DNA from: Brachybacterium halotolerans
GTDB lineage: Bacteria; Actinomycetota; Actinomycetes; Actinomycetales; Dermabacteraceae
Assembly: GCF_016623465.1 (NCBI RefSeq)
Contig: NZ_JAEDAJ010000010.1
Coordinates: forward strand, 16,257 to 48,256
Direction of reading: 5' to 3'
Length of the DNA stretch: 32,000 nt
Shown: positions 2,433 through 23,416 of the stretch, in pieces
Layout of the letters: each line of letters opens with the position of its first letter
Position numbering within the stretch: position 1 is the first letter of the stretch
Notes under the pieces: model-generated
The model's database searches: none
The model's input: only the letters and a program-made list of their open reading frames with translations
What the model was told of the DNA's origin: nothing
Made by a program: the position numbers and the translations under genes

Positions 2433-2673
2433 ATCGTTCTCCTGTCGGTGGGCGCCCTGCGCGCGGCCCGTCTCCGGGCGCGCGGCGAGGGCGGCGCTGT
2501 GCGCAGTCACCGAGGATGCCACACGCCCCGGTCGACGGGTCGAGCCGGATGTGATCTGGCGGACCCTCCGGCGCCCTTCAGTGAGGACAGCCTTGCCTGG
2601 CACAATGGTCGAGCGCCCCGCTGTTCCGCCCCGCAGCCCCGCGCTGCCCGCCCGCACATCCGAAGGAGCTGCT

Positions 2674-3660
2674 GTGACGCGTCCGTCCACCACCGCCCAT
2701 CTCGCCGAGGTCCTCCGCGTCGAGGACATGACCCCCGCCTTCCGCCGCGTGGTGCTGGGCGGTGAGGGCATGGCGGAGTTCGGCATCGACCACCACCCGC
2801 TCGACCAGCGCTTCAAGCTCATCATCCCGCCGGGCGGTGGAGATCCGGCCTTCGATCTCGTGGACTTCCTCGAGAGCCACCAGAGCGACGACCTCTCCTG
2901 GTACCAGGCCTGGCTGCAGGTCGACGAGGACGTGCGCGGCGCCATGCGCACGTACACGATCCGCGACTGGGACGAGGCCGCCCGCGAGCTCGTCGTCGAC
3001 ATGGTCCTGCACACGGACGAGCACGGCGTCGGCGGGCCCGCCGGCAGCTGGGCGCAGGCCGTGCGCCCCGGAGGCCGCCTGCACCTCATCGGCCCCCGCC
3101 GCGGAGGGGAGCAGTCCCGCAGCGGCATCGAGTTCGAGCCCGGCGGCGCGAAGGACCTGCTGCTCGTCGGCGACGAGACCGCGGTGCCCGCGATCGCCTC
3201 GATCCTCGAGTCCCTGCGCGGGTCCGACGTGCGCGGCCGGGCCCTCCTCGAGGTGCCGACGGCCGCCGACCGCCTGGATCTCGAGGGGCCGGCCGGCGTC
3301 GAGGTCGTGTGGCTGGCCCGCGACGGCGCCGAGCACGGCTCCCTGCTCGAGCCCGCGGTCCGCGAGGCCGTCGCGGCCGACGCGGATCTGCCCGCCGACC
3401 CGTCGGCCGGCGAGCGGGTCGAGCTCGAGGACGTCGACATCGACTCCACGATTCTCTGGGAGGTGCCCCAGCACCTCACCCACGCCGCCCACGGCAGCAC
3501 CTCCGAGGTCCACCCCGACGAGCGCCCCTTCTACGCGTGGATCGCGGGCGAGGCGGGCGTGGTCAAGCGCCTGCGCCGCTACCTCGTGCGCGAGATCGGC
3601 GTGGACCGCAAGCAGGTCGCCTTCATGGGGTACTGGCGGATCGGCAAGGCCGAGGGCTGA
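2674..3660 (+). CDS. Siderophore-interacting protein (ViuB/SIP family FAD-binding ferric-siderophore reductase)
   Basis: GTG at 2674 lies 6 nt after GAAGGAG. The N-terminal beta-barrel part has LRVEDMTPAFRRVVLGG and RTYTIRDWD. The C-terminal hallmark is FYAWIAGEAGVVKRLRRYLVREIGVDRKQVAFMGYWRIGKAEG. Confidence 0.85.
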   Translation: MTRPSTTAHLAEVLRVEDMTPAFRRVVLGGEGMAEFGIDHHPLDQRFKLIIPPGGGDPAFDLVDFLESHQSDDLSWYQAWLQVDEDVRGAMRTYTIRDWDEAARELVVDMVLHTDEHGVGGPAGSWAQAVRPGGRLHLIGPRRGGEQSRSGIEFEPGGAKDLLLVGDETAVPAIASILESLRGSDVRGRALLEVPTAADRLDLEGPAGVEVVWLARDGAEHGSLLEPAVREAVAADADLPADPSAGERVELEDVDIDSTILWEVPQHLTHAAHGSTSEVHPDERPFYAWIAGEAGVVKRLRRYLVREIGVDRKQVAFMGYWRIGKAEG

Positions 3661-7552: not shown

Positions 7553-9262
<1,710 letters not shown>

Positions 9263-9416: not shown

Positions 9417-9935
9417 TCAGAACGAGCCGCGAAGCCCATGGGCACGCACCATCACGCTTCCGTTCGGCGTGGTGCGGACTGTCTCGAAGCCTCGAGACCT
9501 GTAGAGCGCAGTCGCAACCGAATTCTCGGCGTCGACGTGGAGGCTGAGTGCGAGGAAGCCCATGTCAGGCGCGAGTTCCAGCAGCCGGTCGAGGAGTCTG
9601 CCACCGACCCCGATGCCCCGGAAGCGCTCGTCGACGGCCAGCACCAGTTCAGGAATCGTGTCCTTCACGAATCCTGACCGTGCGCTCTGGTGCGTGAAGA
9701 GTCGGAACCATGCCGCCCCGCACATCTCCTCGTCGGTCGAGTCGGGGACGGCCACCACTCCTGCGTCGCCTGCGCGGGTCCCGAAGCCATCCACGTAGGA
9801 GTCGGGTGTCCCAGCGGCAGCGTGGATCCGGTACGCGGAGTCGTCCCACGGTTCGCGCCAGCGCCACGCTGCGTAGACCGCGCGCCGCATCGCCTCCTCG
9901 TCGTCGGGCACTGCGCGCCGCATCGTGAAGCCCAT
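9417..9935 (-). CDS. GNAT family N-acetyltransferase
   Basis: The acetyl-CoA binding core is LVLAVDERFRGIGVGGRLLDRLLELA, followed by SLHVDAENSVATALYRSRGFE. The start is ATG 9935 or ATG 9923, and neither has an obvious SD. The upstream part of the 9417..10250 ORF looks non-coding. Confidence 0.7.
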   Translation of the reverse strand: MGFTMRRAVPDDEEAMRRAVYAAWRWREPWDDSAYRIHAAAGTPDSYVDGFGTRAGDAGVVAVPDSTDEEMCGAAWFRLFTHQSARSGFVKDTIPELVLAVDERFRGIGVGGRLLDRLLELAPDMGFLALSLHVDAENSVATALYRSRGFETVRTTPNGSVMVRAHGLRGSF

Positions 9936-10109
9936 GTCGTGGACCGTAGCAGCAGGAGATCTCGACCCGGCTCCGCGGCGATGGCGCACCTTCCTGCTGT
10001 GGTCTTGTGGAAGCATGGCCGGTCCACAACGGCACAGCCGCCTGGATGGGGTGAGAGGATCGTGGCGTCCGGAGTCGGGAGAGCCGTCGCGCCGAGAGTC
10101 CGAAGGGCC

Positions 10110-10931
10110 ATGCTCATGAGCACCGCATCCACCTGCGCACGTCCCACGATCATGCTCACGCCATGGTGCCGCCGCCTGATGCTGAGCGATGAGGACGTGC
10201 CGCGAGCGGCGGCGGACGGGTCGACTGCTCCGACTCCGATCCTCGACCATCGCTCCGCGGCGGTGACGACGCTCGTCGACCGGGCTCGCGTCGCGGCGAC
10301 GTCACCCGGTCCGAGAACGGTCCTGCAGGTCGCCCACCGGATCATCGCGACCGAGATCTCCCCGGTCTATGCGCTCGACGAGACCGTGCCGGCCTCTCGG
10401 ATCATCGCGCGCGGCACGGGATCGTGCAGCCAGCGGCTCGCGGTGCTCGAGAGCGTCGCGCGGGCGATCGGCGTGCGCACACGGGTGCGGGCGCTGCTCA
10501 TCGACGCCTCCTTCTGGTACGACCGCTTCGGTCCCGCGCGGTGGGTGCTGCCCGACGCGATGCTGCTGGTCTGGCCCGAGCTGGAGCTCGCATCGCAGCG
10601 GTGTGCGGGCACGACCGCTGGCAACGGGGCCGACGCCGGCGGGTCCGGCGCCGGTTGGACGAGTGCCGCGGAACTGTTCGGGCCGATCGGCTGCCGCGGA
10701 GGCGCAGCCTTCACGAACACCGGCTCGGAGACGCTCTTCGAAGCCGCCGGACGCTGCGCGATCGACTGGGACGGGCGGACCGACGACCCCGACTTCGACC
10801 TCTCCGGCTTCGTGCGCCACGACTACGGACGCTTCACGGATCGCGACGAGGCGTTCGCCCTGCTGGGGCAGACGCTGTGCGCGCCGAGCCGCCGCATCGC
10901 CGACCCGGTGATGCGGCGGGTCTCGGCCTGA
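10110..10931 (+). CDS. Hypothetical protein with a transglutaminase-like Cys motif
   Basis: It is in frame with the 9690..10931 ORF. The G-S-C-S-Q...ARAIGVRTRV segment (RGTGSCSQRLAVLESVARAIGVRTRVRALL) resembles the nucleophile region of a transglutaminase-like cysteine peptidase. The expected His motif is not obvious. The start is uncertain (ATG at 10110, 10116, 10152 or 10179). Confidence 0.45.
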   Translation: MLMSTASTCARPTIMLTPWCRRLMLSDEDVPRAAADGSTAPTPILDHRSAAVTTLVDRARVAATSPGPRTVLQVAHRIIATEISPVYALDETVPASRIIARGTGSCSQRLAVLESVARAIGVRTRVRALLIDASFWYDRFGPARWVLPDAMLLVWPELELASQRCAGTTAGNGADAGGSGAGWTSAAELFGPIGCRGGAAFTNTGSETLFEAAGRCAIDWDGRTDDPDFDLSGFVRHDYGRFTDRDEAFALLGQTLCAPSRRIADPVMRRVSA

Positions 10932-10947: not shown

Positions 10948-11781
10948 TCAGGCCCCGAACGGGTTCCAGTAGCGGCCGCCGTCGACGACGACCATGACGA
11001 TCGCGGCGGCGACCACCGCGGCCGCGCCCAGGATCGTGACCCAGTCCCTCGTGCGCATCGGCTTCACGTCGTACCAGGTGCGCCCGCGGCCGCGGCCGAA
11101 GCCGCGCAGCTCCATGGCGCTGGAGACCGTCTCGATGCGGTCCAGGGAGCCCAGCAGCAGGGGCATGAGGGTCGACACCACGTTGCGCACGCGCGTGACC
11201 AGCCCGACCTTCCGTGAGATGTCGAGACCACGGGCCTGCTGCGCCTGGGAGATCGTGCGCATCTCGCGCTGGATGTCCGGGATGAAGCGCAGGGCGAGGG
11301 AGACGGCGAAGGCGACCTTGTACGGGACGCCGATGCGGTGCAGGGACGAGGCGAACTCGGGCGGGCGCGTGGTCGCCACGAACAGCAGCACCGCCGGCAG
11401 CATCGCGAAGTACTTGAGGGTGACCGCGAGCTGATAGAACAGCTGCTCCTGCGTGAGGTCCCAGCGCCCGGGGCCGTCGACGATCACGTGCCGGGCGCCC
11501 AGCAGCTCGCTGCCGTAGCCCGGCGCGAACACGAAGATCAGCAGGTTGTTGAGCACCATGAAGGTGAGGATGATCCACAGCACCGTCGCCAGATCGCGCA
11601 GCCGGACCCGCGAGAGCGCCCAGCCGATCATCGACAGCACCCCGAGCGCCGCCAGGAAGCGCACGTCGAAGCTGATCATCGCCGCGAGCACCATCGCGAT
11701 CGTGAGCACGAGCTTCGCAGTGCCCGTGAGGGTGTGCAGCAGTCCGGGCCGCTCGACGTACCCGAGGAGGGGAGCGGTCAT
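10948..11781 (-). CDS. ecfT: Energy-coupling factor transporter transmembrane component (EcfT/CbiQ family)
   Basis: 277-aa polytopic protein with the family-typical PPEFASSLHRIGVPYKVAFAVSLALRFIPDIQREMRTISQAQQARG coupling-helix region. Its ATG overlaps the upstream stop codon (ATGA at 11778-11781). Confidence 0.85.
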   Translation of the reverse strand: MTAPLLGYVERPGLLHTLTGTAKLVLTIAMVLAAMISFDVRFLAALGVLSMIGWALSRVRLRDLATVLWIILTFMVLNNLLIFVFAPGYGSELLGARHVIVDGPGRWDLTQEQLFYQLAVTLKYFAMLPAVLLFVATTRPPEFASSLHRIGVPYKVAFAVSLALRFIPDIQREMRTISQAQQARGLDISRKVGLVTRVRNVVSTLMPLLLGSLDRIETVSSAMELRGFGRGRGRTWYDVKPMRTRDWVTILGAAAVVAAAIVMVVVDGGRYWNPFGA

Positions 11782-13610
11782 CGCGCACCCTCCCCGGGGT
11801 CCGCGCGGAGCGACCGCTCGGCGCGGTCCGCGGCCACGAAGCGGTGGACGAGCGCGATCGGGTCGGGGATCCCGCAGCGCCGGGCGAGGGTGAACAGGCC
11901 CGTGACCACGAGGTCCGCGCGCTCGGCGAGGGCCTCGTCGGTGAGCACGGCGGCGGGGTCCGTGTCGGCGAGGAGCTCTCCATCGGAGATCACGAGCACC
12001 CGGTCGGTGTATTCGAGGGCGAGGTGCATGTCGTGCGTGATCAGCAGGATCGTGGTGCCCTCCGCGTTGATCCGCGCGAGGAAGTCCATGAACTCGCTGT
12101 AGTGGGCGAAGTCCTGACCGGCCGTCGGCTCGTCGAGGATTAGGATCTCCGGCTCGAGCGCGAGCACGCAGGCGATGCTCAGCCGCTTCCTCTGCCCGTG
12201 GCTGAGGGCCGAGATCGGCCAGGAGCGCATCGGCCGCAGGTCCGTCACCTCGAGCACCCGCGCCGTGCGTCGCTCGATCTCCTCAGCGTCGAGGCCGCGT
12301 GCCCGGAGGCCGAGGCGGATCTCCTCCTCGAGCAGGGGCTGGGAGAGCATCTGACCGGGCTCCTGGAGGACGAAGCCCACGTGCGCGCCGTGCTCGGCCA
12401 GCGGCCAGGAGGCGGCGTCGGCCCCTGCGATCCGCACGACTCCCTCGGTGGCCTTCTCGAAGCCGCTGATCACGCGCGCGAGCGTCGACTTCCCCGCACC
12501 GTTGGAGCCGATCACGCCGAGCATCTCGCCGCGGCGGATCCGGGCCGTGATGCCCCGGAGCGCGCGGACGTCGGCCGAGGCGCCGGGGCGGCGCAGGATC
12601 GCGCCGACGCACTCGAGGTCCAGGGCTGGGACCTCGACGTCGGACGGGGGCCGGGCAGCGGTCGCGGACTTCCGGGACGGATCGGCCGGCGCGTGCTCGA
12701 CCCAGGTGCGCACGGCCTCTCTCTGCGCGGACGAGAGCTCCATGCGGGGAAGGTCCGCCGGATGTTGGCCGGCGGTGACCTGGGCGCCCGCGAGGCGCAG
12801 CGCCTCGACATGCAGGGGAGGGCGGATGCCGTGCTCGCGCAGGAGCGGTGAGGCGAGGAGCGCGTCGGGCGGGAGGTCGGCGATGATGCGGCCCTCGTCC
12901 ATGAGGACGATCCGGTCCAGCGGTCGGTGCAGGAGGTCCTCGAGCCGGTGCTCGACGACGATGATCGTGCGCCCCTGCTCGCGGTGCAGGTCGTCGATGA
13001 GCTCGACGGCCGCGCGGCCGGCCGCGGGGTCGAGCATCGCGAGCGGCTCGTCGAACAGGAGCATCTCGACGTCGTCCACGAGCACGCCGGCGATCGCGAC
13101 CCGCTGCTTCTGCCCCCCGGAGAGCTGCTGCGGGGAGGCGTCGAGGTGGTCGGCGATGCCGGCGGCGCGCGCGGCCTCGGCCACGCGGCCGGGCATCTGC
13201 GCGTGCGGGACCTGCTGGTTCTCGAGGCTGAAGGCCACGTCCTCGGCGACGGTCAGCCCCACGAACTGGCTGGAGGAGTCCTGCAGCACCGTGCCCACGC
13301 GCCGCGAGGTCTCGATGATCGGCGCGGCGCCGGGATCGGTCCCGAAGACCTCGATGCTCCCGCTCGCCTCTCCCGCGTGCACATGGGGGACGAGGCCATT
13401 GAGCGCCGCGAGGAGCGTCGACTTGCCGCATCCCGAGGGGCCGACGACGGCGATCTTCTCCCCGCGGCGCACCGTGAGGTCGATGCCGCGCAGCGTGGGC
13501 TCCGACTGGGCGCGATAGCGGAAGGAGAAGTCGCGGAGGCGGACGGGCACCTCTGCGTCGGGCCTGTCGGAGGTGGCGGACCCGCCCGACCTGGGGTTCT
13601 CGACGCTCAC
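11778..13610 (-). CDS. ECF transporter ATPase, fused A1-A2 (two ABC domains; YkoD-like architecture)
   Basis: GTG at 13610 overlaps the stop of the S-component gene (GTGA at 13607-13610). Walker A motifs are GPSGCGKST and GSNGAGKST. Signature motifs are LSGGQKQR and LSHGQRKR. Walker B motifs are LLFDEP and LILDEP. Confidence 0.9.
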   Translation of the reverse strand: MSVENPRSGGSATSDRPDAEVPVRLRDFSFRYRAQSEPTLRGIDLTVRRGEKIAVVGPSGCGKSTLLAALNGLVPHVHAGEASGSIEVFGTDPGAAPIIETSRRVGTVLQDSSSQFVGLTVAEDVAFSLENQQVPHAQMPGRVAEAARAAGIADHLDASPQQLSGGQKQRVAIAGVLVDDVEMLLFDEPLAMLDPAAGRAAVELIDDLHREQGRTIIVVEHRLEDLLHRPLDRIVLMDEGRIIADLPPDALLASPLLREHGIRPPLHVEALRLAGAQVTAGQHPADLPRMELSSAQREAVRTWVEHAPADPSRKSATAARPPSDVEVPALDLECVGAILRRPGASADVRALRGITARIRRGEMLGVIGSNGAGKSTLARVISGFEKATEGVVRIAGADAASWPLAEHGAHVGFVLQEPGQMLSQPLLEEEIRLGLRARGLDAEEIERRTARVLEVTDLRPMRSWPISALSHGQRKRLSIACVLALEPEILILDEPTAGQDFAHYSEFMDFLARINAEGTTILLITHDMHLALEYTDRVLVISDGELLADTDPAAVLTDEALAERADLVVTGLFTLARRCGIPDPIALVHRFVAADRAERSLRADPGEGAR

Positions 13611-14161
13611 CTGTCGAGCGTCAGGGAGCCGGTCCGGGTGCGCGAGCGGGCGTAGATCCCGAGGATGATCCCGCCCAGGACGGCAGCGGTCACCGAGTTC
13701 GCGACGAAGGCGAGGACCCCCTGCGTGAAGACCTTCGAGGCCGGCTCGCCCATGATCAGCACGTCGCCGATCGGCGCCCACAGCACCCAGGTGACGGCGT
13801 TCGCGATCGCGACGGCCAGGACGAACCGCACCAGGGTGCGGCGCGGGAACTCTCCCTCGCGCACATGGTTGTGGAGCATCACCAGGCCCACGATCAGGGC
13901 GAACACGGCGGTCCCGGTCTCCCAGGTGGGCCAGATGCCATATCCCGTCGCGTCGACGAGCACGTGACCGATGAGCCCTGCGAGCACGCCCACGAGCGGT
14001 CCGTAGAGCACTGCGAACACGGCCAGCACGGCGTACTGGAGGTTGATCGTGGTGTTCGGGATGGGCGTGGGGATCGCGAGGAAGCGACCGAGCACGAAGA
14101 ACAGCGCCGCGCCGATGCCGATCGCGACGACGCGGGTGACGGGGGAGATGCGCGGGCTCAT
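13607..14161 (-). CDS. ECF transporter S (substrate-capture) component, UPF0397/YkoE-like
   Basis: ATG at 14161 overlaps the stop of the upstream gene (ATGA at 14158-14161). The 184-aa product has about 6 TM helices. VVAIGIGAALFFVLGRFLAIPTPIPNTTINLQYAVLAVFAVLYGPLVGVLAGLIGHVLVDAT resembles my recollection of the UPF0397-type S-component N-terminal region. Confidence 0.8.
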   Translation of the reverse strand: MSPRISPVTRVVAIGIGAALFFVLGRFLAIPTPIPNTTINLQYAVLAVFAVLYGPLVGVLAGLIGHVLVDATGYGIWPTWETGTAVFALIVGLVMLHNHVREGEFPRRTLVRFVLAVAIANAVTWVLWAPIGDVLIMGEPASKVFTQGVLAFVANSVTAAVLGGIILGIYARSRTRTGSLTLDR

Positions 14162-15027
14162 GGACGGCTCCGATCCTCGGACGGTGCGGGGCGGACGGGC
14201 TCGAGGGCGACCTCCCACGAGGAGCCCGTGCCCAGGTCGAACGCGCGGGCGTAGGAGCCGCGATTGATCGCGACCGCCATCCGGTCCAGCGAGTTCACGT
14301 AGATGAGGGACTCGCCGAGCTCGACCGCGGCGAAGCTCGGGGCGAAGGTCATCTGCGCGGAGTGGACCACGCGCCCCTGGTGCCGCACGCGCAGCTGGAC
14401 CCGTTCGCCGTGGCGGACGCCGAGCCGTGCGAACAGCGTGCGCGGGATCGAGGTCCACAGGGACCCGTAGCGCACGTCGAGGACGTCGATGGATCCGTGG
14501 ACGGCGCCCTCGCGCAGCTCGGGCTCGAGCAGGGGGAGGGCGACCATGCGCTCGAGCGGGACCTCGGGGCCGACGTTCTCGAAGGCGATCGCCCCGGAGG
14601 CCAGACGGGCGCCCGTGAACGCGTAGATGTCCCTGCCGTGGAACGTGTACGACTCCTCGGAGCCGGCCCGACGGTTCACGGTCTCGTCGATCTGGCGCAG
14701 GTCGGTGACGCCGAAGATCGCGTGGAGGTGCGTGAGGGTGCCGTTGTCCGGCGTGACGACGAGGTGGCCCGTGGCGGTGCGCGCGACGACCGAGAGCCGG
14801 TCCGAGCCGACGCCGGGGTCGACGACGGAGACGAACACCGTCCCCTCCGGCCAGTACGAGACCACCTGGGCGAGACGGTACGAGCCCTCCCAGATGTCGT
14901 AGGGCGGGATGTTGTGGGTCAGGTCGTGGATGCGCAGCTGAGGATCGACGCCGACCGCGACGCCCTGCATCGCGCTGACGGCGCCGTCGTCGAGACCGAA
15001 ATCGGATTGCAGGACGAGTGGATTCAC
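14158..15027 (-). CDS. S-adenosyl-L-methionine hydrolase (SAM:hydroxide adenosyltransferase, DUF62 / fluorinase-chlorinase superfamily)
   Basis: GTG start at 15027. The N-terminus is NPLVLQSDFGLDDGAVSAMQGV. FVSVVDPGVGSDR and YTFHGRDIYAF supply the Asp/Arg/His triad seen in the hydrolytic DUF62 clade. Length is 289 aa. Confidence 0.85.
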   Translation of the reverse strand: MNPLVLQSDFGLDDGAVSAMQGVAVGVDPQLRIHDLTHNIPPYDIWEGSYRLAQVVSYWPEGTVFVSVVDPGVGSDRLSVVARTATGHLVVTPDNGTLTHLHAIFGVTDLRQIDETVNRRAGSEESYTFHGRDIYAFTGARLASGAIAFENVGPEVPLERMVALPLLEPELREGAVHGSIDVLDVRYGSLWTSIPRTLFARLGVRHGERVQLRVRHQGRVVHSAQMTFAPSFAAVELGESLIYVNSLDRMAVAINRGSYARAFDLGTGSSWEVALEPVRPAPSEDRSRP

Positions 15028-15048
15028 ACGGGAAGTATCGCAGGCGGA

Positions 15049-15071
15049 GGGACGGCGGGCACGGCCGTCCC
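15049..15071 (-). promoter_or_regulatory. Stem-loop in the leader of the DUF62-ECF operon
   Basis: On the mRNA strand the sequence is GGGACGGC-cgugccc-GCCGUCCC, immediately followed by UCCGCC. It ends 21 nt upstream of the GTG. No SD is visible at the start codon. Function is unknown. Confidence 0.3.
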
Positions 15072-15206
15072 GACGTCCAATTCATCCGGGTTCATCCTGC
15101 TGTGGACGCGGGTCTCCGAGCTGTGTGGGGGACGGGGGTCCGCACCGGTCCGGACCAGCCCGCACAGACCGGGAAGGTCTCGGGAGGTCCGCGCGTTGGG
15201 AGGGGC

Positions 15207-16175
15207 GTGAGGTACTCCCTGCTGGACCGCTCCCACACGCGCGAGAGGCGCCCCGAGGCCGCCGCCCTGCGCGACAGCGTGGAGCGGGCCGTCGCGGCGG
15301 AGCCCCTGGGCTACCACCGCTTCTGGGTGGCCGAGCACCATGGTGTGCCGGGCATCGCGAGCGGCTCCCCGCCGGTGCTGCTTGCGGCGATCGGGCAGCG
15401 CACGGAGCGGATCCGGCTCGGCTCCGGCGGGGTGATGCTCCCCAACCACCGCCCGCTCGTCGTCGCCGAGCAGTTCCTCATGCTCGAGGCGCTGGCGCCC
15501 GGTCGCGTGGACCTCGGCATCGGTCGCTCGCTCGGCTTCACGGCGCCTGTGCGCGAGGCGCTCGGCCGCGCCCGGATCACCGCCGACGAGTTCGCCGATG
15601 AGGTCGCCCGCGTGCGCGCGCACCTCGAGGGCGAGGCGCCGGTCACCGCCCGCCCGGCGGGAGGATCCCCGCCGCCGATCCATCTGCTCGCCACCGGCTC
15701 CGGGCTGCGCACCGCGGCCCGCCTGGGGCTCGCCGTGGTGATCGGAGGGCCCGTGCTGCTCGGCGAGGACCTCGGGGAGCGGATCGCCGCCTACCGCCGG
15801 GAGTTCCGTCCGCATGCGGGCAGCGTCCCGCACGTGATGCTCTCGATGGACCTGCTGGTCGCCGGCACCGACGCCGAGGCCCGCGAGCTCGCCCTGCCCG
15901 AGGTCTGGGCGATGGTCCGTTCTCGCGAGACCGGTGCGTTCCCTCCGTTGGAGAGCCCCGCGAGCATCCGGGAGCGCGCGCTCGGATCACGCGAGCGCGA
16001 CCGGCTCGAGGCAGGGCTCGACGCCTCGTGGGCGGGCAGCGCGTCGACGCTGCGCCCCCGCCTCGAGAGCCTCGTGGAGACCACGGGGGCCGACGAGATC
16101 CTCGCTTCCGGGGCGACCTTCGACCGGGCGGCGCTCGCCGACTCCGATGCCCGGGTCGCCGCGCTGCTGGGGTGA
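15207..16175 (+). CDS. LLM-class (luciferase-like) flavin-dependent oxidoreductase, group-1/YhbW-like
   Basis: GTG at 15207 follows GGGAGG. The N-terminus VRYSLLDRS fits the usual M-x-x-S-x-L-D start of this family. It also carries HRFWVAEHHGVPGIASGSPPVLLAAIGQRTERIRLGSGGVMLPNHRPLVVAEQF. Confidence 0.85.
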   Translation: MRYSLLDRSHTRERRPEAAALRDSVERAVAAEPLGYHRFWVAEHHGVPGIASGSPPVLLAAIGQRTERIRLGSGGVMLPNHRPLVVAEQFLMLEALAPGRVDLGIGRSLGFTAPVREALGRARITADEFADEVARVRAHLEGEAPVTARPAGGSPPPIHLLATGSGLRTAARLGLAVVIGGPVLLGEDLGERIAAYRREFRPHAGSVPHVMLSMDLLVAGTDAEARELALPEVWAMVRSRETGAFPPLESPASIRERALGSRERDRLEAGLDASWAGSASTLRPRLESLVETTGADEILASGATFDRAALADSDARVAALLG

Positions 16176-16233: not shown

Positions 16234-16737
16234 TCAGCCCTCGGCCGGCGGCGCCAGGTCCTTGCGGAAGCAGACGCTGATGCCGTCGCTCGGGTCGTAG
16301 GGCGCGAACACCTCCACGTGCTCCCAGCCCTCCCGCTCGTACAGCGCGATCGCGTCGGGCTGGCGATTCCCCGTCTGCAGGAACAGCTCGACGGCGCCCC
16401 GCGCACGGGCGGCGTTCTCGAGGTGGGCGAGGATCGCCCGCGCGAGGCCCAAGCGGCGGAACGCGGGGCCGACGAACAGCCGCTTGACCTCGAGTCGCTC
16501 GGGGAGGCGGCGCAGCGTGCCGGTGGCCGCGGCCTCGCCGTCGACGAGCGCGAGCACGACCGTCTCCACGTCGTCGCCCGTCGGCCGTCCCGGAGGGGTC
16601 GAGGCGCCGCGGATCGGCACGTAGCGCGGGCCGACCTCGGCGTCCATCGCGTTGCGCAGCGCGGCCGCGCGCGAATCCTCCCAGGACACCTCCTCCCAGG
16701 TGATGGAGGGGGTGGGCGTGGTGCGGGTGTCGGTCAT
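16234..16737 (-). CDS. GNAT family N-acetyltransferase (last gene of the seven-gene operon)
   Basis: 167-aa ORF. The core motif is VKRLFVGPAFRRLGLARAILAHLENAARARG, followed by AIALYEREGWE. Its ATG overlaps the ATPase stop codon (ATGA at 16734-16737). Confidence 0.85.
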   Translation of the reverse strand: MTDTRTTPTPSITWEEVSWEDSRAAALRNAMDAEVGPRYVPIRGASTPPGRPTGDDVETVVLALVDGEAAATGTLRRLPERLEVKRLFVGPAFRRLGLARAILAHLENAARARGAVELFLQTGNRQPDAIALYEREGWEHVEVFAPYDPSDGISVCFRKDLAPPAEG

Positions 16738-18521
16738 GCGGTGGCCTCCAGGATCCCGTCGCCGGGCGTGCTCGCTGTGCTCCCCGTGCTCCCCGTGCTC
16801 TGTGTGCGAGTCGTCCTCTCCGCGCCCGCGACGTGCGCGGGGATCGAGGCGAGCAGACGCTGCGTGTACTCGTGCTGCGGGTCGGCGAAGACGCGCACGG
16901 CCTCGCCCTCCTCGACGACCTCGCCGCGGCGCAGCACGGTGAGGGTGTCGGCGACCTGCCGGACCACGCCCAGGTCGTGGGAGATGAACAGGTAGGTGAG
17001 GCCCAGGTCCTTCTGCAGGCGCACGAGCACCTCGAGGATCCCGGCCTGCACCGTGACGTCCAGGGCGCTCGTCGGCTCGTCGAGGACCAGCACTTCGGGG
17101 CGCAGCACCAGGGCGCGGGCGATCGCGACGCGCTGGCGCTGCCCTCCCGAGAGGGCCGTCGGCCGCCTGCCCAGGAGCTCCTCGTCGAGGCGCACCGCGG
17201 CGAGCGCCCAGCTCACGCGCTCCTCGCGCGCGGCGGCATCGCCCACGCGGTACATGTCGAGGGGCTCGCGGACGATCCGGCCCACGGTGAAGCGCGGGTC
17301 GAGCGAGGTGAAGGGGTTCTGATGGACCAGCTGCAGGTCGCGCCGCAGGGCGCGCAGCGCGCGGGGGTCCGACGGGTCGACCGTCCGGCCGTCGACCTCG
17401 AGGGCCCCGGCGTCCAGGCGCTCGAGCCCGAGCAGGGCCCGGGCCGCTGTGGTCTTCCCCGAGCCCGACTCGCCGACGAGCGCGTGGGTGGTCCCGCGCG
17501 CGATCGAGAAGGACACCCCGTGAAGCGCCCGGATCTCGTGGCCGCCGGTGCTGCGGAACGTCCGGGTGATGTCGCGGGCAGTGACACGGGGCGCCGTGGC
17601 GGGCGGGGCTCCGCCGCCCTCCCCGAGGTCCCGGGCGGCGCGCAGGTCGGCGAAGCGATCGGGGTGCAGGCCGGGGACGTCGGCCTGCAGGCGCCGGGTG
17701 TACTCCGAGCGCGGGTGGGCGAAGACCTCGGCGGTGGGGCCCGCCTCCTGGATGGTGCCGCCCGAGAGGACGACGACCTGCTGGGAGCGCTCGGCCGCGA
17801 GGGCGAGGTCATGGGTGATCAGCAGCAGGCCGATGCCGAGCTCGTCCTGGAGGGACGTCAGCAGGTCCAGGATCTGCTTCTGGACGGTGACGTCGAGGGC
17901 GCTCGTGGGCTCGTCGGCCACGAGCAGTGCGGGGCCCGGGATGATCGCCAGCGCGATGAGCACGCGCTGCAGCTGTCCGCCGGAGAGCTGGTGCGGGTAG
18001 GAGGCGGCGATCCGCTCCGGGTCCGTGAGTCCCGCCCGTTCGAGCCCCTCGCGCACGAGAGCCTCGCGTGCGGCCCGGCTGCGGGCCTCCGGCACGAGCG
18101 CCGCGGCCTCGAGGGCCTGGGAGCCGATGGTGCGCACGGGGTTCAGGGCGCTGCCGGGGTCCTGCGGGACGAAGCCCAGCACCCGTCCGCGCAGGGGACG
18201 CAGGGCGTGCTCGCGCAGGCGGGAGATCTCCCGGCCGCGCAGGCGGACGCTGCCCTCGACGCGGGCGCCGCGGCGCTCGAGCAGGCGGAGGACGGCCCGG
18301 GCGATCGTCGACTTGCCCGAGCCGGACTCGCCGATCAGGGCGAGGGTCGAGCCCGCGGGGACGGAGAAGGACACGTCGCGGACGACCTCGCGGGCCGCGG
18401 CTCGCTCGCCGTAGGTGACGCGCAGGTGCTCGACGGTCAGCAGGGGAGCGGTGCCGTGCTCGGTGTCGCCCGCGGTGGTGCTCCCTGCGTCGGGGCGGGT
18501 GTCGGTGTCGGCGGAGGTCAT
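16734..18521 (-). CDS. Peptide/opine/nickel-type ABC transporter ATP-binding protein, fused double ATPase (DppD-DppF-like)
   Basis: ATG at 18521 overlaps the upstream stop codon (ATGA at 18518-18521). It has two GESGSGKST Walker A motifs, the signatures LSGGQLQR and LSGGQRQR, and two Walker B motifs. Confidence 0.9.
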   Translation of the reverse strand: MTSADTDTRPDAGSTTAGDTEHGTAPLLTVEHLRVTYGERAAAREVVRDVSFSVPAGSTLALIGESGSGKSTIARAVLRLLERRGARVEGSVRLRGREISRLREHALRPLRGRVLGFVPQDPGSALNPVRTIGSQALEAAALVPEARSRAAREALVREGLERAGLTDPERIAASYPHQLSGGQLQRVLIALAIIPGPALLVADEPTSALDVTVQKQILDLLTSLQDELGIGLLLITHDLALAAERSQQVVVLSGGTIQEAGPTAEVFAHPRSEYTRRLQADVPGLHPDRFADLRAARDLGEGGGAPPATAPRVTARDITRTFRSTGGHEIRALHGVSFSIARGTTHALVGESGSGKTTAARALLGLERLDAGALEVDGRTVDPSDPRALRALRRDLQLVHQNPFTSLDPRFTVGRIVREPLDMYRVGDAAAREERVSWALAAVRLDEELLGRRPTALSGGQRQRVAIARALVLRPEVLVLDEPTSALDVTVQAGILEVLVRLQKDLGLTYLFISHDLGVVRQVADTLTVLRRGEVVEEGEAVRVFADPQHEYTQRLLASIPAHVAGAERTTRTQSTGSTGSTASTPGDGILEATA

Positions 18522-19414
18522 CGGTTCCTCTCGGTGTCGATGAAGCGGCTGAGACGGCTCACGGAGAGCACGACAATCGCGATCACGAGGCCGGGAGCGA
18601 TCACCAGCCAGGGCGCGTGCAGGAGATGCTCGCGTCCGTCGGCCACCAGCAGCCCCCAGTCGGAGGCCGGCGGCGGATCGCCGTAGCCCAGGAACGCGAG
18701 GCCCGCGATGGTGAGGATCGCGAGGCCGAACTGGAGGACGGCGAGGGACAGCACGGGACGCACGGCGTTCGGCAGCACGTGGCGGATCAGGATGTACGCG
18801 TCCGAGCCGCCGTTCAGGCGGGCGGCCTCTATGAACACGCTCGTGCGCACGCGCAGGACCTCCGCGCGCATGAGCCGGGCGAACACCGCCACCGCGGAGA
18901 CGCCGGTCGCGATCGCGGCGTTGCGGGTGTCGTACCCGAGCGCCGTGACCACGACCACGGCGAGCAGGAAGCTCGGGATCGCCAGCAGCACGTCGACCAG
19001 GCGCCCCAGGACCGCGTCGGCCCAGCCGCCCGCGTACCCGGCGACGAGGCCGATCGCCCCTCCCACGAGCACGCCGATCGCGACCGCGATCAGGGCGCTG
19101 GTCATCGAGGAGGCCGAGCCGTGGATGATGCGCGAGAGCAGGTCCCGGCCCAGGTGGTCGGTGCCCAGCAGGTACTGCCACCCGGGCGGCGTGAACTTCC
19201 GGTCGGGCACGCCGACGGCCGGGTCCGCGCTCGTGAACAGTCCCGGTGCGAGCGAGAACGCGAGCACGAGGAGGAGCACGGCGATGGACAGCCACACGGT
19301 CAGCGGCAGGCGCCGCAGACCGCGCAGCCGTGACCCTGCCTGCGCGGGGGCGCCGGCCGGCGCGTGCTCGGGCGAGCCCGAGGGGTCGCCGGTGGTGAGG
19401 ACCGCTGCGGTCAT
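18518..19414 (-). CDS. ABC transporter permease (DppC/OppC-like)
   Basis: ATG at 19414 overlaps the upstream stop codon (ATGA at 19411-19414). It carries YLLGTDHLGRDLLSRIIHGS and an EAARLNG..YILIRHVLPN EAA-loop region. Confidence 0.9.
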   Translation of the reverse strand: MTAAVLTTGDPSGSPEHAPAGAPAQAGSRLRGLRRLPLTVWLSIAVLLLVLAFSLAPGLFTSADPAVGVPDRKFTPPGWQYLLGTDHLGRDLLSRIIHGSASSMTSALIAVAIGVLVGGAIGLVAGYAGGWADAVLGRLVDVLLAIPSFLLAVVVVTALGYDTRNAAIATGVSAVAVFARLMRAEVLRVRTSVFIEAARLNGGSDAYILIRHVLPNAVRPVLSLAVLQFGLAILTIAGLAFLGYGDPPPASDWGLLVADGREHLLHAPWLVIAPGLVIAIVVLSVSRLSRFIDTERNR

Positions 19415-20346
19415 GACGCCTCCCGGGGTGCGCGCAGCCGCGGGTCCAGCAGCGGCAGCACGAGGTCGATGACGAGGTTGACGCCCACGAACACGGCCGC
19501 GGAGAGCACCACGGCGGCCTGCAGCACGGGCACGTCCTGGCTGGTCACGGCCTTCTGGACGACGGTGCCGATGCCGGCGCGCCCGAAGATCGTCTCGGTG
19601 ATGAGCGAGCCGCCCAGCAGCTCGCCGACCACGAGCCCGCATACGGTGACCGTGGGCAGCAGGGAGGGCCGCAGCAGGTGGCGCGCGAACACCCGCACCG
19701 GGGCGAGCCCGCGGGAGAGCGCGACCTCCGTGTGGTCGAGCGCAGTGGTCGTGTCCAGGGCGGTGATGAACACCTGGGCGATCTGCGCGGACACGGGGAT
19801 CGCGAGGGTCAGGGCCGCGAAGGCCGTGGATCCGGCGGTCTCGGGGTCGATGATGGAGAAGGCGCCCAGCTGCACCGCGAACACCTGGATCAGCACCAGG
19901 CCGATGAGGAAGTTCGGGGTGGACAGGAACACCGTGGGCAGTGAGCGCACCAGGCCGCCCAGCCGGCCCTCGCCGAGGCTCTGCGAGGCGAAGCCCAGGA
20001 TCAGGGCGATCAGCAGCGCGAACACCAGGGCGGTCGCGGCGAGGGCGAGGGTCGAGGGGATCGCCTCACCGATCGTCGAGGAGACCGGCGCCGAGGTCGA
20101 GAGCGAGATCCCGAGGTCGCCGCGCAGGGCGTTGCCGATCGAGATCAGCAGCTGCACGAGCACGGGCTTGTCGAGGCCGTAGAACGAGCGGATCTGCGCC
20201 TTCTCGGCCTCGGAGTAGCCGGCCTGCGGGTTCTCGAGCTGCGCGCTCACCGGGTCGCCGGGGATCGCGGCGAGCACCAGGAACACGAGCACGTAGGCGA
20301 GGGCGATGACGAGGACGGCCTGGCCGACGCGCTTCAGGGCGATCAT
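19411..20346 (-). CDS. ABC transporter permease (DppB/OppB-like)
   Basis: ATG at 20346 overlaps the upstream stop codon (ATGA at 20343-20346). The N-terminus MIALKRVGQAVLVIALAYVLVFLVLAAIPGDPV is typical of DppB. Confidence 0.9.
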   Translation of the reverse strand: MIALKRVGQAVLVIALAYVLVFLVLAAIPGDPVSAQLENPQAGYSEAEKAQIRSFYGLDKPVLVQLLISIGNALRGDLGISLSTSAPVSSTIGEAIPSTLALAATALVFALLIALILGFASQSLGEGRLGGLVRSLPTVFLSTPNFLIGLVLIQVFAVQLGAFSIIDPETAGSTAFAALTLAIPVSAQIAQVFITALDTTTALDHTEVALSRGLAPVRVFARHLLRPSLLPTVTVCGLVVGELLGGSLITETIFGRAGIGTVVQKAVTSQDVPVLQAAVVLSAAVFVGVNLVIDLVLPLLDPRLRAPREAS

Positions 20347-22076
20347 GCGTCCGCCCCCGTCCCGTCGGCCCCCGAGCCCGTCTTCGTCGCCGCGTGGTAC
20401 GAGGGGATGGCGACGGCGTTGACCGTGATGCCGGAGAGCTCGGGGGTCTGGACGTAGATGCGCTGGACGTTCTGCTCGAGCGGGATGAAGTAGGCCTGCT
20501 CGAGGACATGCTGCGAGAGCTCGTCGATCACCCCGGCGCGCTCCGTGCGGTCGGCGGTGCCAGCCACCCGGCCCGCGAGATCCGCGAGGCGCTCGTCGGA
20601 GTCCCCGAGGGCGAACCAGTCCTCGCCGTCGGCGGTGATCACTCCCGCCACGGTGCCGGCGTCCACGAAGCTGCGGGTGACCTCGGCGAGCCCCTGGTCG
20701 GGGTTGTCCTCGACCTTCCCGGAGTAGGCCGCGACGTCGATCTTCTGGGTCGCGACGCGGATGCCCAGGCGGCCCAGCTGCTGGGAGATCAGCTCGGCCT
20801 CGGGCACGGAGCCGGTGAGGTACGGGGTGGGGTAGAGGGTGAACGCGAGCTCCGTGCCGTCCTTCGTGCGGTAGCCGTCCTCGGAGCGCCCGGTCCATCC
20901 GGCGTCGTCGAGCAGCCGCGCGGCCGAGTCCGGGTCAAAGGGGAAGAGGTCCGAATGGTCCTCGGCCTCGGGGACGCTCGACTGCAGCCAGCTCGTCGCG
21001 CTCTCCCAGTCCTTCGTGAACACGGTGCGCAGGATCTCGTCGCGGTCGATGCCGCGGGTGATCGCGCGGCGCACGCGCACGTCGTCGAAGGGCGCCACGT
21101 TCGTGCGCACCCGGAAGCCGTGGGTGAAGCCGAGATAGCGCGGCACCTCGATCGTGAACCCGGCCTCGGTGAAGGAGTCCAGGACCTGCGGGTTCACGTT
21201 GTAGGACACGTCGCTCTGGTGGGCGCGGGCGGCGGAGGCGCGCAGGGTGTCGTCGGGCAGCACCTTGAAGGTGATCCTCCGCAGCGCGGCGGCACCGCTG
21301 CGCCCGAGCACGGGCGGAGCCCAGTCGTAGTCCTCGCGGCGCACCAGGGTGACGTGGTCGCTCGCGGCCCAGGAGTCCAGCACGAAGGGTCCGCTGCCGA
21401 TCTGGTGGGCGAGGTCCGACTGCTCGCCCAGGGAGCGGGCCACGGAGTCGGGGCTCAGCAGCAGGCATCCGTGGTAGCCGAGGGTCGGCAGGAAGGAGAG
21501 GGACGGGGCGGTGAAGCGCACGCGCACGGTGCGCTCGTCGAGCGCCTCGGCCCCGTCGTAGGTCGAGCCGGGGAACAGGCCCACCTTCGCGATGCCCGCG
21601 TCGGGCCGGCCCTTCGCCCAGACGTCGAGGTTCGCGACGACAGCGTCGGCGTCCAGCGCTGTGCCGTCGGAGAAGGTGACGCCGTCCTTCAGGTGCAGCG
21701 TGAACTCGGTCGAGTCGCTCGCGACGTCCCAGCTCTCGGCGATCCACGGGGTGATGGTCCCCTTCTCGTCCGTGTGCACGAGCTTGTCGGTGAGCTGCTG
21801 CCAGACGTTCGCCTCGTAGCTCGAGATCGCGCTCTTGGAGGGCACCCATCCGCCGTCGAGGTTCGAGATGAGGAAGGTCAGCTCGTCCTCGGGCGTCTCG
21901 GAGCCGCCCGCCGCGTGGGCGGCCTCGAGCGCGCAGCCCGCCAGGGGCAGCGCGGCGAGCCCCAGCGCGCCCGCGCCGATACCGCGCAGGAGGCGTCGGC
22001 GGGTGACATCGGGGCCGACGGGGGCCGGGCCGACGGGCGCGGGGCCGACGGGCGCGGGGCCGACGGGCCGGGTCAC
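20343..22076 (-). CDS. ABC transporter substrate-binding lipoprotein, family 5 (peptide/opine/nickel class), with a Tat-type signal
   Basis: GTG at 22076 overlaps the aminotransferase stop codon (GTGA at 22073-22076). It is the only canonical in-frame start upstream of the signal peptide. The twin-arginine motif and lipobox are TRRRLLRGIGAGALGLAALPLAGC. The core ESWDVASDSTEFTLHLKDGVTFSDGTALDADAVVANL is typical of family 5. Confidence 0.85.
   Translation of the reverse strand: MTRPVGPAPVGPAPVGPAPVGPDVTRRRLLRGIGAGALGLAALPLAGCALEAAHAAGGSETPEDELTFLISNLDGGWVPSKSAISSYEANVWQQLTDKLVHTDEKGTITPWIAESWDVASDSTEFTLHLKDGVTFSDGTALDADAVVANLDVWAKGRPDAGIAKVGLFPGSTYDGAEALDERTVRVRFTAPSLSFLPTLGYHGCLLLSPDSVARSLGEQSDLAHQIGSGPFVLDSWAASDHVTLVRREDYDWAPPVLGRSGAAALRRITFKVLPDDTLRASAARAHQSDVSYNVNPQVLDSFTEAGFTIEVPRYLGFTHGFRVRTNVAPFDDVRVRRAITRGIDRDEILRTVFTKDWESATSWLQSSVPEAEDHSDLFPFDPDSAARLLDDAGWTGRSEDGYRTKDGTELAFTLYPTPYLTGSVPEAELISQQLGRLGIRVATQKIDVAAYSGKVEDNPDQGLAEVTRSFVDAGTVAGVITADGEDWFALGDSDERLADLAGRVAGTADRTERAGVIDELSQHVLEQAYFIPLEQNVQRIYVQTPELSGITVNAVAIPSYHAATKTGSGADGTGADA
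22008..22070 (-). repeat. In-frame 15-nt tandem repeat (4 copies) encoding (PVGPA)n ahead of the Tat motif
   Basis: ggccgacggg recurs at 22013, 22028, 22043 and 22058, an exact period of 15. The two central units, cgcggggccgacggg, are identical. Confidence 0.9.
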
Positions 22077-23416
22077 CCTCGGGCCTCCGGATCGGACAGG
22101 GCCGCGGCGAGACGCTCGGCCCCCTCGCGCAGGCGCTCCGGCGGCAGATGGCTGATCCCCACGCGCAGCGCGCCGCGATCGTCGGCCGGGTTCGTGCCCG
22201 ACCCCGCGGCCGGGCCACCGTCCGCGCCCTCCCAGAAGAAGTACCGGCCCAGCACCGCGTCGGTCCCGGTCCGCTCGCGGGCCACGCGCTGGGCCGCGGC
22301 GAGATCGATGCGCTCGTCGCGCACCCGCACCCAGGCGAAGATGCCGCCCGTGCGGTGGACGACCTCGATGCCGCCGGGCACCTGCGCGTCCAGGATCGAG
22401 GTCACGAGGTCGAAGCGCTCGGCGTAGGCGGTGCGGGCGCGGGCGGCGATGGCGTCGAAGCCGCGCGGGGCGAGCGGACCGTCGCCCGGCGCCGGGTGCG
22501 CGGCCGATCCGGCCCCCAGCACCCGCTCGACGATCGCCTGCACGAGCACCGAGGAGTGCTGGTCCTGGTTCGCGCGCAGCCGCGTCACGGGGCCGACGAG
22601 CCATGTCGGCAGTGCGAGCCAGCCCAGCCGCAGGCCGGGCCCGAGCACCTTCGAGAAGGTGCGCACGTGGACCACGCGGTCCGAGCCCAGCGGGTAGTCC
22701 GGCAGCGAGGGGCCGTCGAAGCCCAGCGAGTGGTACGCGTTGTCGGAGACGATCACGAAGCCGAAGCGCTCGGCGAGCTCGACCAGCCGCGCGCGCTCGG
22801 CCGGCGTGGTGACGTACCCGGTGGGGTTGTGGTGATCGGGCACCGTGTACAGCAGCTTCGGGCGCTCGCCCGCGACCAGCCGCGCCTCGAGCGCGTCGAT
22901 GTCGAATCCGCGCTCCGTGAGGCGCAGCGGGACGAGCCGGGGGCGCTTGTGCTGCAGGTCGCGGAAGATCAGCGGGTAGGTGGGATCCTCGACGATCATC
23001 GCGTCGCCCTCGTCGAGCAGGGCGTCGAACAGCAGCGAGAGCCCGTGGAAGGCGCCGTTGGTGACGACGATCCGCGCGGGCTCCGCGCCCTCGCGTCGGC
23101 CGATCCAGTCGCGCAGGCCCGCCAGGCCCGGGCTCTGGGAGTACTGGAGCGCCGCGGCGAGGGCCGACGGATCGGCGGTGAGGTCCTCGGCGGCGTGGCG
23201 GATCTGCGCGAGCGGCAGCAGGTCCTCGCTCGGGGCGCCGCCGAGCAGCGGGATCGAGTCGGCGGGCAGCGAGGAGGCCTTCCCGAAGCCCCGCGCGCGG
23301 TCCTCGCGCGAGCCCAGATCCGAGAGCAGCGCGGAGGGGGAGAGCGCAGGGGCGGGATCGGCGCCGGCCCTCGTCGTCGTTGTGGTCGCTGTGTCCGAAG
23401 TGGTCGCAGTGTTCAT
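22073..23416 (-). CDS. PLP-dependent aminotransferase, class I/II fold (ARO8/LysN/MocR-catalytic-domain-like; no HTH domain)
   Basis: ATG at 23416 lies 5 nt after the FAD-oxidase stop codon. It carries YSQSPGLAGLRDWI, YTVPDHHNPTG, SDNAYHSL and the PLP-lysine motif RTFSKVLGPGLRLGW. Confidence 0.85.
   Translation of the reverse strand: MNTATTSDTATTTTTRAGADPAPALSPSALLSDLGSREDRARGFGKASSLPADSIPLLGGAPSEDLLPLAQIRHAAEDLTADPSALAAALQYSQSPGLAGLRDWIGRREGAEPARIVVTNGAFHGLSLLFDALLDEGDAMIVEDPTYPLIFRDLQHKRPRLVPLRLTERGFDIDALEARLVAGERPKLLYTVPDHHNPTGYVTTPAERARLVELAERFGFVIVSDNAYHSLGFDGPSLPDYPLGSDRVVHVRTFSKVLGPGLRLGWLALPTWLVGPVTRLRANQDQHSSVLVQAIVERVLGAGSAAHPAPGDGPLAPRGFDAIAARARTAYAERFDLVTSILDAQVPGGIEVVHRTGGIFAWVRVRDERIDLAAAQRVARERTGTDAVLGRYFFWEGADGGPAAGSGTNPADDRGALRVGISHLPPERLREGAERLAAALSDPEARG

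Follow-up and report, generated by a model that had tools for sequence, protein, structure and literature searches.

The locus described here raises two linked questions: what does an energy-coupling factor (ECF) importer carry when its genes are translated together with that of an enzyme predicted to cleave S-adenosylmethionine (SAM), and what would that enzyme do for the importer? The operon in question lies on the minus strand of a 32,000-nucleotide (nt) stretch of Brachybacterium halotolerans DNA (contig NZ_JAEDAJ010000010.1, positions 16,257 to 48,256; hereafter the window), and comprises genes for a DUF62 SAM hydrolase, a substrate-binding S component, a fused EcfA1A2 ATPase and the transmembrane coupling component EcfT, in that order (Table 1). 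A preliminary description, made from the sequence alone, had reported four minus-strand open reading frames (ORFs) linked by overlapping stop and start codons; all four are present in the ORF list and received Pfam assignments, and reading the minus strand bears out the ATGA, GTGA and ATGA junctions. Third-position GC content is 0.93-0.97 in each of them, as expected at the ~72% GC of the genome, and we therefore regard all four as real genes. The ATPase scores 369.8 bits against ECF_ATPase_1 and 335.8 bits against ECF_ATPase_2, exceeding both NCBIfam cut-offs, and the S, A and T subunits are encoded together with two ATP-binding cassette (ABC) domains in the A subunit, as in group I ECF systems (dedicated modules). 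From sequence, the operon is predicted to encode such a dedicated (group I) importer, one whose S component is of the PF07155 family, plus a co-translated DUF62 enzyme. Below we argue that it may represent the first ECF-type SAM importer, with a DUF62 partner that would selectively destroy the (R,S) epimer of SAM to yield methionine and adenosine; this reading is tentative, and we put its probability at roughly 0.35. That the transported molecule is methionine-related is highly probable, and the chances that it is SAM or a close adenosyl-sulfonium appear evenly balanced.

The pairing of enzyme and transporter is widely conserved. An alignment of the S component was scanned over one genome per species, which gave 80 loci (the best tblastn matches of 469 confirmed relatives), and the four window proteins served as queries against their six-frame ORFs; in 76 loci the upstream sequence was long enough to be informative. 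A DUF62 gene lies on the same strand in 43 of these 76 (57%, a descriptive figure since the 80 loci are phylogenetically non-independent), and stands immediately upstream of the S gene in 40 loci. The pairing spans Actinomycetota, Bacilli, Clostridia and Erysipelotrichia: DUF62 accompanies all seven loci from Actinomycetota (Brachybacterium, Dermabacter, Arcanobacterium and an Actinomycetaceae genome), all ten from Streptococcus, six of the seven from Oscillospiraceae, one of two from Clostridium, and the single loci from each of Enterococcus, Carnobacterium, Bacillus and Sporosarcina. None was found in the loci of Lachnospiraceae (0/9), Blautia (0/3), Spirochaetes (0/3) or Leptolinea (0/2), and in DUF62-less loci the only conserved neighbours were lineage-restricted, e.g. 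DUF711 in Lachnospiraceae.

The link is also kept through rearranged gene orders (L009, L010, L057 and L084). In three Erysipelotrichaceae-type loci (L009, L010 and L057) two tandem DUF62 paralogues follow EcfT, and in seven Streptococcus loci the DUF62-S pair occurs with neither fused ATPase nor EcfT within 7 kb. The persistence of this streptococcal pair shows that DUF62 goes with the substrate-binding subunit and not with the energising components. Within the transporter itself, EcfT orthologues come after the ATPase in 69 of the 80 loci. All three contigs that were reached from the DUF62 side contain the same cluster, one of them ordered DUF62-A-T-DUF62-S, and in pairwise identity DUF62 tracks S, A and T (r 0.79-0.85) about as closely as these three track one another. 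The adjacency is thus not confined to a few close relatives, a restriction that would have spoken against the preliminary description, but recurs across distant lineages; the 43 loci, the several classes that they represent and their rearranged orders indicate that enzyme and transporter form a conserved functional unit, and not a lineage accident. The DUF62 search returned at least 8,000 clusters at 90% identity versus 1,625 for the S family, such that most DUF62 genes cannot pair with this transporter. In Sulfolobus acidocaldarius, the DUF62 gene sits with genes for a triphosphate tunnel metalloenzyme as well as a nicotinamide mononucleotide (NMN) adenylyltransferase.

Regulatory elements place the orthologous operons in methionine metabolism. 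Rfam scans of 40 related loci (33 non-actinobacterial and 7 actinobacterial) identified three T-boxes and three SAM-I riboswitches among the 33. Enterococcus (L079), Carnobacterium (L078) and Sporosarcina (L069) have a T-box leader immediately ahead of DUF62, and in covariance-model alignments the specifier position of all three reads AUG followed by G, which identifies them as methionine T-boxes. A SAM-I riboswitch stands immediately before DUF62 in L049, and before the S gene in L009 and L014. What comes after the element is alike in all six cases: a terminator-like hairpin with a T-run, a ribosome-binding site and the DUF62 or S start, in that order; this layout shows a Firmicute operon, hydrolase included, that is predicted to be on when Met-tRNA charging or SAM is low. 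Moreover, metQ-metN-metI lies directly upstream of the operon in L008 (with NlpA lipoprotein, ABC plus NIL, and permease domains), and sequence clustering places metQNI upstream in L009, L010, L013, L023, L024, L026 and L054, for a total of 7-8 loci in three lineages; a methylenetetrahydrofolate reductase (MTHFR) gene adjoins the operon in L081. The preliminary description had proposed uptake and cleavage of SAM or an analogue, with methionine salvage as one possible purpose; the methionine T-boxes, SAM-I riboswitches and metQNI neighbours of the orthologues bear out a place in methionine and SAM metabolism. Neither the window nor the 40 loci yielded a flavin mononucleotide (FMN) riboswitch, and no thiamine pyrophosphate (TPP) element lies upstream of any operon in the same set; the single TPP match, in L046, lies ~1.5 kb past the operon end on the other strand. 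Palindromes like the streptococcal MET-box occur 60-100 nt upstream of DUF62 in L025 (ATAGTT-N3-AACTAT) and L072 (Table 1), but with three and four mismatches, respectively, to the consensus, these weak matches are not relied upon.

The window itself is organized differently. No Rfam family, THI-box included, matched it at the gathering score, and a relaxed scan (E<=10) over 14900-15700 likewise recovered neither a THI-box nor any other family, which agrees with the earlier remark that no THI-box could be recognised there. Rfam also found no riboswitch in the seven actinobacterial loci, and there are no methionine genes near the operon within the window; in the window and the actinobacterial loci alike, a protein regulator may control the operon. 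No Shine-Dalgarno sequence precedes DUF62 in the window, and a -10-like hexamer stands just ahead of its start codon (Table 1), with CATACT in L004 and TATATT in L002 at the same 6-nt spacing. The combination of this hexamer with the missing Shine-Dalgarno sequence suggests a leaderless operon mRNA in the window and in Dermabacteraceae.

The enzyme encoded by the first gene matches Pfam SAM_HAT_N (165 bits) and SAM_HAT_C (67 bits), and retains the motifs quoted in the preliminary description: SDFG at residue 8, VVDPGVGSDR at residues 68-77 and TFHGRD at residues 128-133. In the alignment with the chlorinase SalL, D70, R77 and H130 stand opposite Tyr70, a Thr and a Tyr, such that the proposed hydrolase-type rather than halogenase-type residues could be confirmed. 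The Asp-Arg-His triad is described in the literature as the hydrolase type, and together with the two SAM_HAT domains it gives the protein the features of an adenosine-forming DUF62 SAM hydrolase. A fluorinase or chlorinase is rejected on the same alignment and on TIGR04507, against which the protein scores 94.2 bits versus a cut-off of 400. The (R)-SAM hydrolase equivalogs are also unmatched (NF058624, 136.9 bits versus 350; NF053629, 109.4 versus 470). The nearest species-named matches, ~80% identical, come from Brachybacterium, and the protein is 49-62% identical to the ECF-linked DUF62 of Firmicutes; scores against solved DUF62 and SalL chains are much weaker (83-121 bits). ECF-linked DUF62 proteins form a distinct subfamily, all of whose members keep D70 and R77, and 43 of 47 of which also have H130. 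The sole activity reported for DUF62 hydrolases is the conversion of SAM into adenosine and L-methionine, and StDUF62 and two archaeal enzymes are selective for the inactive (R,S)-SAM epimer. The preliminary description had called the physiological role of DUF62 unsettled. With (R,S)-SAM-selective hydrolysis reported for these enzymes and archaeal deletion phenotypes given in a 2025 preprint, this role is no longer fully open, but its generality was disputed in a 2025 paper.

Three further features of these enzymes were observed. In four ECF-linked DUF62 proteins from Oscillospiraceae/Clostridia, Tyr replaces the triad His (TFYGRD), the same residue that SalL has there (Table 1); the activity of these members may differ from that of His-bearing ones. 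Some loci possess two DUF62 paralogues, placed after EcfT or flanking the A-T genes, of which the divergent one is 38-40% identical to the window protein and features an N-terminal TDFTYKE motif. Such pairs may represent two specificities, e.g. for the two SAM epimers. The name 'RNA polymerase delta subunit' is misapplied to several DUF62 proteins (P0171, P0206, PDB 7CCG and the Streptococcus suis protein of L072), which looks like a propagated error, and one that hides the DUF62-ECF link in annotation tables.

The S component matches Pfam PF07155 (ECF-ribofla_trS; 141.5 bits versus a cut-off of 26.7) and NCBIfam PRK13661 (196.8 versus 99), and is 78% identical to its B. subflavum counterpart. 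Its AlphaFold2 model (mean predicted local distance difference test score, pLDDT, 93.6) features six helices, and all of the top 22 Foldseek matches are S components, the first being TmRibU; the protein is thereby predicted to share the general features of ECF S components, namely small size, six membrane helices and the typical S-component fold. The model is about equally near to RibU, FolT, ThiT, PanT, HmpT and BioY (12-22% identity, template modelling (TM) score 0.55-0.7). A sequence search of the PDB gave only one marginal match, to another S component (4HZU_S, E = 0.024), which indicates that no structure of this family has been solved. Twelve residues are invariant: N36, Y43, H66, D70, W77, W80, W125, D133, E139, Q147, N155 and Y170. 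Judging from the predicted helix boundaries, helices 3, 5 and 6 would carry some of them at their outer ends, and loops 1, 3 and 5 would hold the others. It is at the outer helix ends and connecting loops that S components bind their substrates. The three acidic and three Trp residues in this set would suit a cationic adenosyl-sulfonium, which is suggestive only.

The family already bears a functional label. The S. suis member (L072) shares 47% identity with the window S component and scores 268 bits on PRK13661, and the SEED name for the S. suis S-component gene is MtsA of a 'methionine-regulated ECF transporter', beside a misnamed DUF62. Because both adjoin such a misnamed gene, the L072 S gene is very probably SEED MtsA (equated by its neighbour, not matched by sequence), and the window module very probably SEED MtsABC. 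The T-boxes and SAM-I riboswitches described above independently reproduce the label 'methionine-regulated'.

From these data we infer the substrate, the stereoselectivity of the subfamily and the regulation of the Brachybacterium operon. Outside the cell, the S component would capture SAM or an adenosyl-sulfonium very similar to it, the fused A1A2 ATPase with EcfT would drive uptake of the captured compound, and DUF62 would displace methionine from C5' with water to give L-methionine and adenosine. SAM in the environment would presumably include some of the (R,S) epimer, an inactive form that arises spontaneously. In the variant that we favor, imported (S,S)-SAM would be used directly as a cofactor, and DUF62 would clear or recycle the (R,S) fraction. 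This variant is attractive because known DUF62 enzymes prefer the (R,S) epimer; it would also explain how 43% of loci do without an adjacent DUF62 while keeping the invariant residues. ECF systems are usually low-capacity, high-affinity scavengers, which favors such a clean-up role over bulk methionine supply. Induction when methionine or SAM runs short is in keeping with a scavenging system, and a SAM-off riboswitch would provide product feedback on a SAM importer; pure housekeeping repair fits poorly, because a repair enzyme would be needed most when SAM is abundant.

Several observations weigh against uptake of SAM with removal of its (R,S) epimer. The low capacity of ECF systems makes bulk methionine supply by this route doubtful. 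Rfam detects no methionine-responsive RNA element in the window, and methionine/SAM regulation of the orthologues equally fits any other methionine-related substrate. A literature search turned up no binding or transport data for any member of the S family. The window DUF62 scores far below the (R)-SAM hydrolase equivalog cut-offs, which leaves its substrate and stereoselectivity putative, and for StDUF62 a 2025 paper questions (R,S)-SAM hydrolysis as the physiological role. Finally, 33 of the 76 loci, including all of those from Lachnospiraceae, Blautia, spirochaetes and Leptolinea, have no adjacent DUF62, with the pocket-residue set still invariant, so that an adjacent enzyme gene is not a requirement of the transporter.

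In one alternative, the ECF module imports another methionine-related compound (methionine, S-methylmethionine, homocysteine or methionine sulfoxide), and DUF62 is merely co-regulated, recycling the cell's own SAM or (R,S)-SAM during methionine starvation. We consider this unlikely, yet it is the alternative that survives best: any methionine source is compatible with the methionine T-boxes, the SAM riboswitches and the neighbouring metQNI, DUF62 is absent from the vicinity of the S gene in 43% of the loci, the earlier annotation speaks of an unspecified 'methionine precursor', and a housekeeping role of DUF62 is documented in archaea without such a transporter. However, a shared regulon leaves unexplained why DUF62 is directly beside the S gene in 40 loci, why the pair occurs without A and T in Streptococcus, and why it survives rearrangement. 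Repair of endogenous (R,S)-SAM would be expected at high SAM, yet in L049 DUF62 stands behind a SAM-off riboswitch, and methionine import would duplicate the adjacent MetNIQ.

A second alternative, distinctly improbable in our estimation, retains the enzyme-substrate link but changes the chemistry: the cargo would be another 5'-substituted adenosine or an unknown sulfonium, and the DUF62 subfamily would have an activity other than plain SAM hydrolysis. The distinctness of the subfamily (49-62% identity across phyla), its weak resemblance to solved enzymes and its scores below the equivalog cut-offs are compatible with such an activity, as are the four members with Tyr for the triad His and the loci with two divergent paralogues. 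Against this, Asp and Arg are invariant and the His is kept in 43 of 47 members, the window protein among them, and regulation specific to methionine and SAM argues that the leaving group is methionine.

The Pfam and NCBIfam names imply a riboflavin importer, which we regard as very improbable and reject. Both models, PF07155 and PRK13661, are exceeded and the top Foldseek match is TmRibU, but RibU (18-19% identity, TM score about 0.6) is no nearer to the S component than FolT, ThiT, PanT and HmpT, a SAM hydrolase and MetNIQ are the partners conserved beside it, and methionine T-boxes and SAM riboswitches occur among the 40 scanned loci, of which none, nor the window, gave an FMN riboswitch; on these grounds the name 'ECF-type riboflavin transporter' looks wrong for PF07155/PRK13661. 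The idea of a YkoEDC-type thiamine/hydroxymethylpyrimidine (HMP) importer that has lost its THI-box can be rejected as scarcely credible, since the ykoEDC-like layout noted in the preliminary description holds for the S/fused-ATPase/T architecture and the DUF3744 linker of the ATPase but not for the S component, which belongs to PF07155/PRK13661 and has no YkoE-family match at E<=0.01 in Pfam or NCBIfam, and since none of the operons in the window and the Rfam-scanned loci has a TPP element upstream.

Table 1. Positions of the operon and of other features in the window and in related loci (L numbers); positions are counted within each sequence.
Feature	Sequence	Position	Strand	Remarks
DUF62 SAM hydrolase	window	14158-15027	minus	289 aa, GTG start; Pfam SAM_HAT_N + SAM_HAT_C
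ECF S component, PF07155/PRK13661	window	13607-14161	minus	184 aa, six predicted helices
Fused (duplicated) EcfA1A2 ATPase	window	11778-13610	minus	610 aa; two ABC_tran + DUF3744
EcfT transmembrane coupling component	window	10948-11781	minus	277 aa; Pfam CbiQ 114 bits
ATGA stop/start overlap, DUF62/S component	window	14158-14161	minus	direct sequence reading
GTGA stop/start overlap, S component/ATPase	window	13607-13610	minus	direct sequence reading
ATGA stop/start overlap, ATPase/EcfT	window	11778-11781	minus	direct sequence reading
-10-like hexamer GATACT	window	15034-15039	minus	6 nt ahead of DUF62 GTG start, within the upstream stretch 15028-15052
MsnO8-family LLM-class oxidoreductase ORF	window	15018-16175	plus	
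MsnO8-family LLM-class oxidoreductase ORFs	L004	3966-4991, 4942-6069		
MsnO8-family LLM-class oxidoreductase ORF	L006	4883-5899		
MsnO8-family LLM-class oxidoreductase ORF	L001	881-2140		
413-aa ORF	window	9690-10931	plus	converges on EcfT
GNAT acetyltransferase ORF	window	9417-10250	minus	overlaps the 413-aa ORF
Other window content	window	16734-22604	minus	ordinary
Other window content	window	7565-9262	plus	ordinary
Other window content	window	2272-3660	plus	ordinary
DUF62 with TFYGRD	L016	5352-6206		
DUF62 with TFYGRD	L017	1244-2113		
DUF62 with TFYGRD	L032	6090-6947		
DUF62 with TFYGRD	L035	6072-6944		
Two DUF62 paralogues	L009	10269-11955		
Two DUF62 paralogues	L010	10173-11847		
Two DUF62 paralogues	L057	10167-11847		
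Two DUF62 paralogues	L084	5001-9266		
DUF62 misnamed 'RNA polymerase delta subunit'	L072	6087-6974		S. suis
MET-box-like palindrome	L025	6066-6082		
MET-box-like palindrome	L072	6034-6050		
MptD/Trep_Strep gene upstream of DUF62	L023	5260-5883		
MptD/Trep_Strep gene upstream of DUF62	L024, L026, L054, L065, L077			
PRPP synthetase gene	L081	3496-4644		
PRPP synthetase gene	L082, L083	2870-4018		

The neighborhoods of these operons feature several other genes. In Dermabacteraceae, an MsnO8-family LLM-class (luciferase-like) oxidoreductase recurs beside the operon, its orientation varying; the ORF listed for the window overlaps the DUF62 start, and its true start therefore probably lies further downstream. 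At the other end of the window operon, a 413-aa ORF converges on EcfT with stop codons 16 nt apart. It has no Pfam match at E<=1e-5, a third-position GC of 0.82, which is below that of its neighbors, and an overlap with a GNAT acetyltransferase ORF on the other strand. The remaining content of the window is ordinary, and includes a fused oligopeptide-type ABC ATPase, a family-5 solute-binding protein, GroEL, an alpha-amylase, a siderophore-interacting flavoprotein and two GNAT acetyltransferases. In several oral streptococci (six loci), the gene next upstream of DUF62 encodes an MptD/Trep_Strep 'putative ECF S component'; L023, L024, L026 and L054, four of the six, have metQNI beyond it, and two S-like membrane proteins flank the hydrolase. 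On three metagenomic contigs, the opposite strand bears a phosphoribosyl pyrophosphate (PRPP) synthetase (ribose-phosphate pyrophosphokinase) gene upstream of DUF62, which could be a purine-salvage tie for the adenosine product, or coincidence.

If the S component binds SAM, an orphan S family of 1,625 clusters at 90% identity, which now carries the name 'riboflavin', would gain its real substrate, a prokaryotic ABC-type route of SAM uptake would be established, and the disputed role of bacterial DUF62 would become directly testable in an operon induced by methionine or SAM limitation. If its DUF62 partner also destroys the (R,S) epimer selectively, the bacterial DUF62 subfamily would have a physiological role distinct from housekeeping repair. 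SAM would be a scavenged 'vitamin' for many host- and food-associated Gram-positive bacteria, with relevance to methionine-auxotrophic pathogens (Streptococcus, Enterococcus, Trueperella and Arcanobacterium) and gut Clostridia. Two systematic annotation errors are exposed as well, 'riboflavin transporter' as the name of PF07155/PRK13661 and 'RNA polymerase delta subunit' as that of DUF62 proteins. Two elements of this picture are already known, namely the methionine-regulated tag of the S family in SEED and the chemistry of DUF62. A full-text literature search, which left some key papers uncovered, found neither a link between DUF62 and an ECF transporter nor an ECF-type SAM importer. The DUF62-Mts link may already be in print; work by Kornfuehrer and colleagues from 2020 reportedly may include a comparative-genomics analysis.

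Comparison with known systems sets the operon apart from each of them. YkoEDC is likewise a group I module ordered S, duplicated ATPase and T, but the window operon differs from it in S family, in the absence of a THI-box, in its partners and in its regulators. RibU and the window S component have the six-helix fold of S components and an Ala/Gly-rich helix 1 in common; they are separated by their low sequence identity and by the lack of an FMN riboswitch at the window. SAM importers are known from other transporter classes: Rickettsia RP076 and Chlamydia CTL843, of the drug/metabolite-transporter type, which serve obligate intracellular bacteria without metK, and yeast Sam3. Uptake of intact SAM is the function that they would share with the window operon; they are unrelated secondary carriers, unlike an ECF module, and we know of no importer of these types that is paired with a SAM-cleaving enzyme. 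Closest are MtsABC/MtsTUV, which comprise the same S family, a fused ATPase and EcfT, with Met T-box or S-box control of orthologues; the name MtsTUV is said to come from Rodionov and colleagues (J Bacteriol, 2009). TCDB lists a 'methionine precursor' family, 3.A.1.29, with its substrate unspecified. The window operon differs from these systems in having no methionine-responsive RNA element and a probably leaderless mRNA, and the DUF62 partner is not part of their published name or description in the accessible literature. The characterised hydrolases PH0463, StDUF62, SaciSAMH and HvSAMH share both Pfam domains and the Asp-Arg-His triad with the window DUF62, which is only weakly similar to the solved enzymes and scores below the equivalog cut-offs. 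Finally, the S. acidocaldarius gene stands in another gene context, whereas the window DUF62 is encoded with a transporter, and its orthologues, predicted to be switched on by methionine or SAM shortage, appear ill-suited to pure housekeeping repair.

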